This document shows positions 19,015-21,122 of a stretch of 24,966 bases of DNA, piece by piece; the first letter of the stretch is position 1, and each line of letters starts with the position of its first letter. The stretch is taken from IMG/VR virus record IMGVR_UViG_3300044272_004843, positions 1 to 24,966 of that record. One strand, 5' to 3'. The notes beneath the pieces are model-generated. The model saw nothing but the letters and a program-made list of their open reading frames with translations. It did not search any database and was not told the DNA's origin. Source of the stretch: a virus (lineage: Duplodnaviria > Caudoviricetes). Made by a program: the position numbers and the translations under genes.

Positions 19015-19040
19015 ACAGTGGATGTGGAAACACCCACTGT
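19015..19040 (-). other. 11-bp RNA hairpin downstream of the 157-aa gene
   Basis: Minus strand ACAGUGGGUGU-UUCC-ACAUCCACUGU with one G-U pair; no U tract. Confidence 0.6.
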
Positions 19041-19051
19041 TGAATTAAAGA

Positions 19052-19525
19052 TTACTGTGAATCGATGTTTGCGACTCCTAATGCCGCAACTGATGTGGCA
19101 TCAAAAGCTTCATCGCCTACAGCAGCTCCACCCTGTGTGTTGTTGCCATCAGCAATAGACACCTTGAACTTGTCAGATCCTGATGAAGCGTCAGCACCAA
19201 TACCGCCCACAACAACTGTTCTGTTGCATAATTTGGTCACTTGGTCAGTAGATGAATCCAGAGGATTGATACATGCAATTCTGAATTCGCCTTCACCTAA
19301 TGCGCCGGCAGCTTTGTTTACTAGAGTAAGCACTTCTGTTACTGTTGATGAATCAGAAGGTTTTGTAGCAGAAACTTTAAACTTTCTTGTTGATCTTTGC
19401 GATACAATAAATGCACCTAAGCCTTCTTCAGCTCCTGCTTCTAGTTCTCCTGTTAGTCTGTAGTTGGTAACTTGGATCTTGCCTGAGCCGGATCCTATTT
19501 TACTTGGATTAATTGGTCTTCCCAT
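19052..19525 (-). CDS. Putative virion protein, 157 aa (MGRPINPSK...)
   Basis: AGGAGA SD 5 nt before ATG 19525, so the GTG start at 19567 is rejected; G/S/A/T-rich; lies in the structural block. Confidence 0.75.
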   Translation of the reverse strand: MGRPINPSKIGSGSGKIQVTNYRLTGELEAGAEEGLGAFIVSQRSTRKFKVSATKPSDSSTVTEVLTLVNKAAGALGEGEFRIACINPLDSSTDQVTKLCNRTVVVGGIGADASSGSDKFKVSIADGNNTQGGAAVGDEAFDATSVAALGVANIDSQ

Positions 19526-19545
19526 TTTATTCTCCTTTTGTTTCT

Positions 19546-19621
19546 GTCCAACGTGGGTTCTAGCCACTACGCGGAGGATGTTACCGCATAAGTCTCACTC
19601 GTTGTGTGAGCTCTATTAGAC
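19546..19621 (-). ncRNA. Structured 5' leader RNA, four-way junction (family not recognised)
   Basis: P1 GUCUAAU/GUUGGAC, P2 CUCAC/GUGAG, P3 UAUGCGG/CCGCGUA, P4 GUGG/CCAC. All three non-Watson-Crick pairs are G-U on the minus strand. Confidence 0.65.
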
Positions 19622-19644
19622 TGTGTATTTAAGCACACAGTCTA
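19617..19644. repeat. Perfect 10-bp inverted repeat enclosing a TAAATA promoter motif
   Basis: TAGACTGTGT-atttaagc-ACACAGTCTA; minus-strand TAAATA at 19631-19626. Confidence 0.8.
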
Positions 19645-19667: not shown

Positions 19668-21056
19668 TTAGGTGCCGTCACCAAATCGATCTAAGTTCCA
19701 AGCTCCACCAGCAAACACACAAATTGCAAGTGTGCGTTTAGGTGTTGATGAATCGCCTGCTGTGTTTCCTATGAAAGGCTTCCATGCATATGTGGCCAGG
19801 ACGTCTCCATCATCAGGATCTCTTACTTGACTTAAAGTAACAATTGTGTTTGCAATTGATCCAACCGCAGAGTCACCTCCAGCAATGGCCAAGTACATAA
19901 CTTGTCCTTCAGATCCAGCGGCAAGGGTGTAGTCTTGTTCACCAGATGCTAGTAGATGCACTCCAGCAGTCAATGACAATGCTGTAGTTGATGTGGTGAG
20001 ATCATTTTGTACCTGATTTTCAAAAAATTGTCCAGCAACTTTTCCACCCAACACAGTAAACGCCCCATTATTAACTTGCACAGGGTCTTGGAAATTAATA
20101 ACTGAGGAGTCTTCAGTACCAATTTGATTTACAATCAGTGTTTCATTTACTTTTAGTATTTCATTGACTTCTAGTTCTGTTGAATCAGAAGATGAAATAG
20201 GTCCATTTATAACAACGCCACCTGTGCCTTGTGGTTGTAGCACAATGCTACCGTTGGTTGTTAGATTGTTAAGCACTACATCGTTGCTTGAATCTTTGAT
20301 TTCGGCGTTTGTATTAAATTTAATTGCACCGCTACCAATTTTTGATAAGTTGGTTTGTACACCGTATGCCGCAGACAAAAATCCATTAAGGGCACTGCCT
20401 ACTGTGATATTTGTGCATGTTATATCTTCTGTAATATCAACATCACCTTCAACAAATAATGCTTTACTAGAAGAGTCATTGTTCCTAATGTCCAAATTTC
20501 CTTGAATCAAAACAGAATCTGAAACAGTTAGTCTATCGCCATCAATTGCAGTAATTGTTTGTGTGTCGATGTTGGCAACAATGGTTGCTGTTGCAGTATC
20601 AGTAACAGCAGTTGTTACAGAATCATCGGAAGTGGATGTAACTGCTTTGAATTTGTCTTCACCTTCATTCCAATAAAAGAATGCAGAATCAAGTGCGGCT
20701 CCTCTGTTGATAAAAATACCAGCGTCAATGTCTCCGCCAGAGGAGTTTCTATTGAGTTCTAGTAAATTATCTTCAATTTGCATCACTGTTGCATTGATTT
20801 CAGTTGTTGTGCCTTTTACTTCTAAGTCATCATTGATAATAACTTTGCCTGTGCCATTTGTTTCAATTGTTAGATCGCCATTTGTTACTGTATTGGTAAT
20901 TGTTGATCCTGAAAGTGTTATGTTAGATAGTGAAGCACCGCCTAGTTTGTCATATATTTCGTTGAAGTTGTCATTAATTTTATCAAAAGCCGTTCTTAAT
21001 GGATCACCTGTGCCATCATTGGCCGCTGATCCTATGTTGATTGATTGTTGTGTCAT
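19668..21056 (-). CDS. Putative tail fibre/baseplate-attached protein (paralogue B)
   Basis: N-terminus INIGSAANDGTGDPLRTAFDKINDNFNEIY resembles T4-type baseplate gp9/gp10 N-termini; beta-repeat body; AGGAG SD and TAAATA upstream. Confidence 0.75.
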   Translation of the reverse strand: MTQQSINIGSAANDGTGDPLRTAFDKINDNFNEIYDKLGGASLSNITLSGSTITNTVTNGDLTIETNGTGKVIINDDLEVKGTTTEINATVMQIEDNLLELNRNSSGGDIDAGIFINRGAALDSAFFYWNEGEDKFKAVTSTSDDSVTTAVTDTATATIVANIDTQTITAIDGDRLTVSDSVLIQGNLDIRNNDSSSKALFVEGDVDITEDITCTNITVGSALNGFLSAAYGVQTNLSKIGSGAIKFNTNAEIKDSSNDVVLNNLTTNGSIVLQPQGTGGVVINGPISSSDSTELEVNEILKVNETLIVNQIGTEDSSVINFQDPVQVNNGAFTVLGGKVAGQFFENQVQNDLTTSTTALSLTAGVHLLASGEQDYTLAAGSEGQVMYLAIAGGDSAVGSIANTIVTLSQVRDPDDGDVLATYAWKPFIGNTAGDSSTPKRTLAICVFAGGAWNLDRFGDGT

Positions 21057-21122
21057 TTATGTTGTCTCCTCTGGCTGTGTATTTAACAAATTTTTTTATA
21101 AACCGGAAGTAAATATAATAAC

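Follow-up and report, generated by a model that had tools for sequence, protein, structure and literature searches.

The window, by which we mean the whole 24,966-nucleotide stretch of DNA analyzed here, is a 25-kb viral fragment (CheckV completeness estimate of 7%) with genes for a clamp loader, a GroES-like protein, a Clp ATPase, DnaJ and PhoH, and with lysis, virion and tail-fibre genes. One of its virion proteins matched those of the jumbo phages GAP32, XaC1, CBB and 121Q/PBECO4 at 25-27% identity. The source is likely an uncultured aquatic giant phage, and the RNA element described below likely opens a late message of this phage that encodes a probable virion protein. On the minus strand, a TAAATA box (19631-19626) was followed by 4 nt, a 76-nt element (19621-19546), 9 nt, an AGGAGA sequence (19536-19531) and the ATG start codon (19525) of a 157-aa protein. 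The features of the locus are as follows.

19668..21056, minus strand: upstream tail-fibre/baseplate-like gene (T4 gp9/10 N-terminal domain, tail PHROGs), with a TAAATA box at 21085
19617..19644, minus strand: P0, an 11-bp hairpin around the promoter box that excludes P1 and is possible only in read-through RNA
19626..19631, minus strand: TAAATA late-type promoter box, with the probable start site at about 19622-19620
19615..19621, minus strand: 5' strand of P1, an optional closing stem (predicted pairing 0.96-0.97 for promoter-start RNA; one-sided changes only within the lineage)
19594..19610, minus strand: P2, a variable hairpin (two-sided changes at 3 of 5 pairs among 22 leaders; missing in leaders L171, L182 and L224)
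19568..19590, minus strand: P3, a hairpin of the conserved core by its pair counts in 190 leaders, with a loop (19575-19583) ending in UCCU
19553..19567, minus strand: P4, a hairpin of the conserved core, whose stem covaries freely under the loop CUAGAAC (19557-19563)
19546..19552, minus strand: 3' strand of P1, with no CCA after it in the window
19531..19536, minus strand: Shine-Dalgarno (SD) sequence AGGAGA (AAGGAGA in 157 of 190 leaders)
19523..19609, minus strand: match to Rfam RF02980, freshwater-2, covering P2, P3, P4, the SD and the start codon (model positions 1-84 of 84, E 5.8e-8)
19052..19525, minus strand: MGRP-family gene for a probable virion (head accessory) protein of 157 aa

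The sequence, coordinates and spacings of the element, as first given by a sequence-only reading of the window, were all confirmed on the minus strand. The four-way junction proposed in that reading was borne out by folding of the 76-nt element (-23.5 kcal/mol, z -2.32), with 2 of 200 shuffles equally good, and the three imperfect pairs were, as described, all G-U on this strand. The opposite strand was unremarkable (z +0.38) and did not form the junction. The element was indeed GC-rich (0.51 versus 0.36 for the window, placing it in the top 1% of 76-nt segments), but the accompanying statement that all other gaps between genes are tiny was incorrect: 23 of 34 gaps were shorter than 20 nt, and ten others of at least 20 nt reached 126 nt, with a GC content of 0.15-0.33. 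The hairpin P0, absent from the earlier reading, uses the 5' strand of P1 as its own 3' arm.

The element had been regarded as possibly undescribed. By Infernal search against Rfam, it was found to match RF02980 (type Cis-reg) at 64.6 bits compared to a gathering score of 49.9, and because this score is exceeded the novelty of the element is refuted. This match was the sole cmscan match in the whole window, and freshwater-2 occurred as a single copy in the IMG/VR record. The three adjacent hairpins, the P3 stem and the P4 loop all aligned to the RF02980 consensus, and the element immediately precedes, on its own strand, an SD and AUG, both of which are included in the Rfam model. By contrast to the consensus, which is without a closing stem, the lineage of the window adds the 7-bp P1, carries the P0 hairpin over the promoter, and ends its P3 loop in UCCU where the commoner freshwater-2 ending is CC-purine. 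The window element is a member of this catalogued orphan motif. RF02980 reportedly originates from a survey of 224 motifs. The word 'freshwater' is absent from the main text of that survey (PMC5737381), and the motif is not named in the portion of PMC10690425 that was covered. Literature searches by the motif name 'freshwater-2' and by the accession RF02980 returned no paper on the motif.

Homologous leaders were collected by DNA-pattern scans, the second of which covered 120 of about 370 stretches, and by protein-anchored scans (the best 80 of 277 and the best 80 of 254). The 345 locus hits, duplicate contigs included, gave 195 distinct leaders, and the 190 with a promoter were parsed further. 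The parser accepted leaders only with an MG start and at least six of seven P3 pairs, and part of P3 and of the P4 loop was preset in the DNA patterns, so the invariance counts lean high; variation among the leaders comes chiefly from the protein-anchored set. Pair 5 of P3 was found to be C-G in 175 leaders, G-C in 10 and G-U in 5, and pair 6 to be G-C in 161, A-U in 15 and U-A in 14. The outer three pairs of P4 were intact in 187, 185 and 189 of the 190 leaders, with several pair types at each. The P4 loop was CUAGAAC in 163 leaders, UUAGAAC in 12, AUAGAAC in 9 and other in 6 (consensus NUAGAAC), and the P3 loop included CC in 183 leaders and lacked it in 7. P3 and P4, which both covary across the 190 leaders, form the conserved core. 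Thus, a conserved CUAGAAC loop on a variable stem, and more broadly a conserved phage leader RNA positioned in cis and marked by covariation, had been correctly anticipated, and the window element is a real RNA under selection that belongs to a known orphan family and carries add-ons of its lineage. Conserved loop letters on exchangeable stems suggest, as a pattern of sequence conservation, a recognition surface.

The remaining stems were less constant, P2 being variable and missing in three leaders. P1 was predicted (at least 3 expected pairs) in 26 of 92, 0 of 31 and 1 of 67 leaders of the three gene subgroups, a total of 27 of 190. Among the 22 leaders of the window type, 97% of P1 cells were paired (three of the four unpaired cells belong, by eye, to one column-shifted row), and 4 of 7 pairs had compatible one-sided changes, none of them two-sided. 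The 12 distinct P1 patterns of subgroup A paired at 33 of 44 inner cells compared to 28.3 by permutation (28 of 2000 permutations) with a single double change among them; for the full set of 25 patterns, the excess of pairing was not significant (195 of 2000). P1 is probably real in the lineage of the window but optional, and the closing stem of the cloverleaf is an add-on of some lineages and not family-wide. A four-way junction common to the family was rejected on the P1 total and on subgroup C, where the 5' GUC is missing from 30 of the 60 leaders that have the 3' partner.

These counts bear on whether the element is a tRNA mimic, or a small RNA processed by cutting where the 7-bp closing stem ends, as the size of 76 nt, the three hairpins and the closing stem itself would allow. 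The P4 loop may also resemble a T-arm, and ACCA stands right behind P1 in 3 of the 22 window-type leaders (L286, L287 and L288), probably by chance in an A/C-rich spacer. A T-loop has a fixed first U and a G-C closing pair, but the first P4 loop base was C in 163, U in 17, A in 9 and G in 1 of the 190 leaders, and the closing pair was G-C or C-G according to lineage. ARAGORN detected no tRNA in the window, Rfam gave no tRNA (RF00005) match, and 19 of the 22 window-type leaders, the window included, were without CCA. The likeness to tRNAs and tRNA-like elements is restricted to the lineage of the window and to size, closing stem and three arms; freshwater-2 differs in having no D- or T-loop consensus and in that its closing stem and first arm are optional. 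We consider this explanation very improbable.

The product of the downstream gene gave no identification in Pfam, PHROG, PDB or Atlas, and no known RNA-binding domain was found in it by Pfam, PHROG and PDB searches. A profile of its MGRP family matched EST35_0383 of Pseudomonas phage PA5oct over 88 columns (probability 96.5, E 8.3e-10). The latter protein appears in the virion ESI-MS/MS table of PA5oct with 11 peptides and 50.9% coverage, according to the section of the source covered (PMC7318152). In 12 of 16 loci picked by hand, the MGRP gene came after the major head protein gene, and from this gene order and the profile match a head accessory or decoration role is probable for the 157-aa protein. 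The downstream proteins, of 112-463 aa, have a common N-terminus and a core with insertions, and the profile match, strong in the window subgroup, was weak or marginal for the longer forms. A 171-aa reading from a GTG codon was rejected, as homologs begin at the ATG. Residues 124-281 of EST35_0383 (L358, 2501-3481), which lie outside the MGRP domain, matched PDB 9hz8 chain M, 'Structural protein' (E 1e-4).

Freshwater-2 was strictly linked to this gene family. In an unconstrained listing of 115 rows, an MGR gene stood behind the motif in every row with downstream sequence, among the matches listed. The motif was carried by 85 of 90 distinct protein-anchored leaders, and the other five (L179, L217, L248, L265 and L311) belong to second tandem paralogs behind a motif-bearing first copy; in these MGRP tandems the RNA is on the first gene only, and the second has no leader or one with TAAATA alone. 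All five large contigs had one freshwater-2 copy each over the cut-off. No direct match to the window protein or leader was detected in cultured phages. The homologs of PA5oct, Sinorhizobium phage Phosso and Agrobacterium phage Atu_ph07 (a weak match, E 0.06) have TAAATA and a leader of 28-32 nt without a freshwater-2 match; thus, the MGRP gene family functions without the RNA. The Atu_ph07 gene (L440, 2001-3413), a probable MGRP homolog, lies within a tRNA cluster; it has a TAAATA of its own, and a leader RNA is absent.

Other features were observed at related loci. The leader of L003 / L164 is identical to that of the window, with the downstream frame shut after 7 codons by a deletion or an assembly error. 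The gap between the major head protein and MGRP genes contained up to three Rfam motifs: matches to the glutamine riboswitch (RF01739) and manA (RF01745) were found ahead of freshwater-2 in L180 (3476-3523 and 3667-3871), L181 (3465-3511), L258 (2649-2856) and L171 (3648-3862), that of L171 being just below its cut-off. In cellular genomes, 4 of 80 pattern matches were genuine freshwater-2, all in metagenome-assembled bins, and the others failed. These four (L386, L397, L410 and L425) combine freshwater-2 with MGRP genes in bacterial bins of four unrelated groups; they are probably mis-binned phage contigs and possibly give hints to hosts.

The constancy of the target is of importance for a further explanation, in which the leader is an operator for a different phage or host protein, such as a late translational regulator, and not for its own product. 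Such an operator would show the same conserved surface and position, and the leader types were found to be mosaic compared to the protein tree (a quick tree with many open forks), so the RNA follows the protein only loosely. However, each of the five large contigs provides one target per genome, and no other gene family was found behind the motif among the matches listed, a pattern that fits self-control better than a regulon. We regard control by another protein as distinctly unlikely.

Of 189 leaders, 187 had a TAAATA box no more than 60 nt from P3. In the window, 10 of 20 such boxes were 4-9 nt ahead of an ORF start (8 by script, 2 by eye), at 277, 2048, 4219, 5213, 9379, 12169, 16375, 19008 and 22975 on the minus strand and at 21110 on the plus strand, which suggests leaderless late messages. 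A late-sigma family was encoded in 3 of the 5 large RNA-carrying contigs; T4 gp55 also matches this family. These box positions and the late-sigma family make TAAATA a likely late promoter, with the RNA probably beginning at or beside the first base of P1, a start site placed from the position of the box.

P0 encloses this promoter, with the TAAA of the box in its loop. A hairpin of the P0 type of at least 8 bp was found in 16 of the 22 window-type leaders compared to 2 of 168 others. Two-sided changes were found at 6 of 9 P0 pairs, and the number of doubly changed cells was reached by 0 of 500 shuffles; this result rests largely on one three-pair swap common to four rows. For 15 P0 leaders the upstream gene is known, and all 15 lay behind a gene ending like the tail-fibre gene of the window or behind a similar ORF of fibre length, and the six window-type leaders without P0 lie behind other genes. 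The tail-fibre/baseplate-like gene is the likely source of read-through transcripts in the window. In predicted folds, P1 formed at 0.96-0.97 in RNA that starts at the promoter, and in read-through RNA P0 formed at 0.98-0.99 and P1 at 0.00; P2 and P3 remained in the latter and P4 was weaker. The SD, about 80 nt downstream of the end of P0, was mostly open in nested folding of both forms (unpaired 0.55-0.86), with no consistent change in its opening. P0 may be the end hairpin of the upstream message. An intrinsic terminator was rejected, as the sense strand is without a U tract and a terminator was listed on the opposite strand only, at chance frequency. Another hairpin without a U tract (19015-19040, minus strand) lies after the MGRP gene stop and before the next TAAATA, an end-of-gene hairpin near a promoter, like P0.

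Words of the region were contained in twenty metatranscriptome runs, mostly from seawater. Eight of 23 listed runs were mapped on the window, as contigs only, picked by the window stretch and possibly including DNA; no start, strand or level is readable from such contigs, and parts of a run left uncovered carry no meaning. Among the matches listed, contigs lay on the MGRP coding sequence in 7 of the 8 runs and bridged the element and the coding sequence in 4, which could be DNA. One read of run X4 spans the promoter, from read-through or from DNA. If they are RNA, the bridging contigs speak against the processed small RNA considered above. They would argue likewise against a self-cleaving ribozyme, for which the small size and conserved unpaired bases could be cited but of which two of the four stems are dispensable; with no known ribozyme family matched by cmscan, self-cleavage is hardly credible.

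Another explanation is a late message whose 5' end is constitutively stabilized. By this explanation, the compact fold guards the 5' end against decay and presents a strong SD for a late protein made in many copies, enhancing translation with no feedback. The element begins at the probable start site, where P1 would by its predicted pairing engage the first bases of the message, and a strong SD followed by an A-rich spacer lies in a window in which many other late-type promoters look leaderless. The presence of contigs on the MGRP gene in 7 of the 8 mapped runs, among the matches listed, is also consistent with this role, but these runs were selected by the window stretch and their contigs are without strand or level. 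Moreover, a stabilizer would need pairing alone and not the conserved loop letters observed. We consider it unlikely overall, yet a contender to be taken seriously.

With respect to the ribosome site, the end of P4 was 3-19 nt from the SD and 12-29 nt from the AUG in the 190 leaders, distances that fall inside the reach of the ribosome. At least 3 pairs between the P3 loop and the start region were possible in 183 of 190 leaders and at least 4 in 146, and at least 3 with the SD in 72. The UCCU of the P3 loop could, in all 22 window-type leaders, make 4 Watson-Crick pairs with the SD or 3 such pairs plus a G-U with the start region. The pairing of the P3 loop to the start did not covary, shuffled partners being as good or better in 300 of 300 trials. 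The start bases were unchanged in paralogs and cultured homologs without the RNA, so their invariance is explained by the protein, and compatible changes in the P3 loop were mostly transitions, the commonest class of change anyway. Pairing of the P3 loop with the ribosome site is a plausible candidate contact. Two other tertiary contacts were rejected: P3 loop pairing to the 3' strand of P1 was weaker than with other partners and no better than shuffled, and a pseudoknot of the P4 loop with a downstream UUCU has its tail in only 69 of 190 leaders, the window not among them, with 5 leaders altering the loop without compensation. In subgroup C leaders (for example, L065, L098 and L106), the tail of CUUCU type can form a hairpin onto the SD.

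A riboswitch for a small molecule or ion, in which a pseudoknot between loop and ribosome site closes upon binding, would draw on the possible short pairing at this site and on the conserved unpaired letters. A hairpin covering the SD is moreover possible in 69 of 190 leaders, in lineages other than that of the window. However, the downstream gene is structural and not metabolic, the core consists of two simple hairpins with no junction between them, and cmscan of the whole window matched the element to no known aptamer family. Ligand sensing is therefore judged decidedly improbable.

We tentatively favor, at somewhat below an even chance, a reading in which the freshwater-2 leader is the 5' end of a late message and a translational operator bound by protein, probably autogenously. 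A structured leader stands beside the ribosome site of one gene family, as expected of an operator of the T4 gene 32/43 type. A protein, probably the unassembled gene product, would bind the P3-P4 core and block ribosome loading, possibly by stabilizing the short pairing of the P3 loop with the ribosome site. Since the SD is predicted to be mostly open in both forms, repression would need an extra partner; we infer both this partner and the direction of control. In the lineage of the window, messages begun at the promoter would carry a 5' end paired in P1, and P0 would strip P1 from those that arise by read-through. Of the functions considered in the sequence-only reading, a protein-binding autoregulatory element has become the best guess, and the tRNA mimic is not supported, with P1 in only 27 of 190 leaders and P2 absent in three. 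A more specific form of the operator would sense assembly: free head-accessory protein would clamp P3-P4 and lock the P3 loop on its own ribosome site, and the choice of start would set which messages can be repressed, the late promoter of the gene giving a closed four-way junction and read-through giving P0 with an open form of three hairpins. This version is rather improbable as a whole.

Known systems provide partial likenesses. Wyckoff and Casjens reportedly described in 1985 the autoregulation of P22 scaffolding protein, in which an unassembled head-assembly protein is said to limit its own synthesis; the likeness is by description, and the precedent extends to self-limitation of such a protein only. 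Phage T4 gp32 and gp43 bind structured operators located in the leaders of their own genes, as given in the part of the source covered (PMC3014915). Similarly to freshwater-2, these are structured leaders upstream of the SD of one phage gene and are patchy among relatives. By contrast, the T4 products are known nucleic-acid binders with shown repression and the window product is a probable virion protein for which operator binding is proposed here; the folds are unrelated. In T4, hairpins of the genes e, soc, 49 and I-TevI appear in long read-through RNA only (PMC3014915). As in P0, a late promoter lies inside the hairpin and promoter-initiated RNA loses the 5' arm, provided that the window start is as placed above. 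The T4 hairpins bury the SD or AUG, whereas P0 buries the 5' strand of P1, with no consistent predicted change in SD opening.

As the RNA class was already catalogued, the finding is not a discovery but places an orphan motif of Rfam in context, by supplying a promoter, one target gene family (of which a homolog in a cultured phage is confirmed in virions), the minimal core P3 plus P4 and the lineage add-ons P1 and P0. With promoter, target, core and add-ons now defined, the function of freshwater-2 can be tested by short synthetic leaders. If autogenous control by free head-accessory protein is true, freshwater-2 would represent a rare RNA-level feedback on virion assembly in giant phages.
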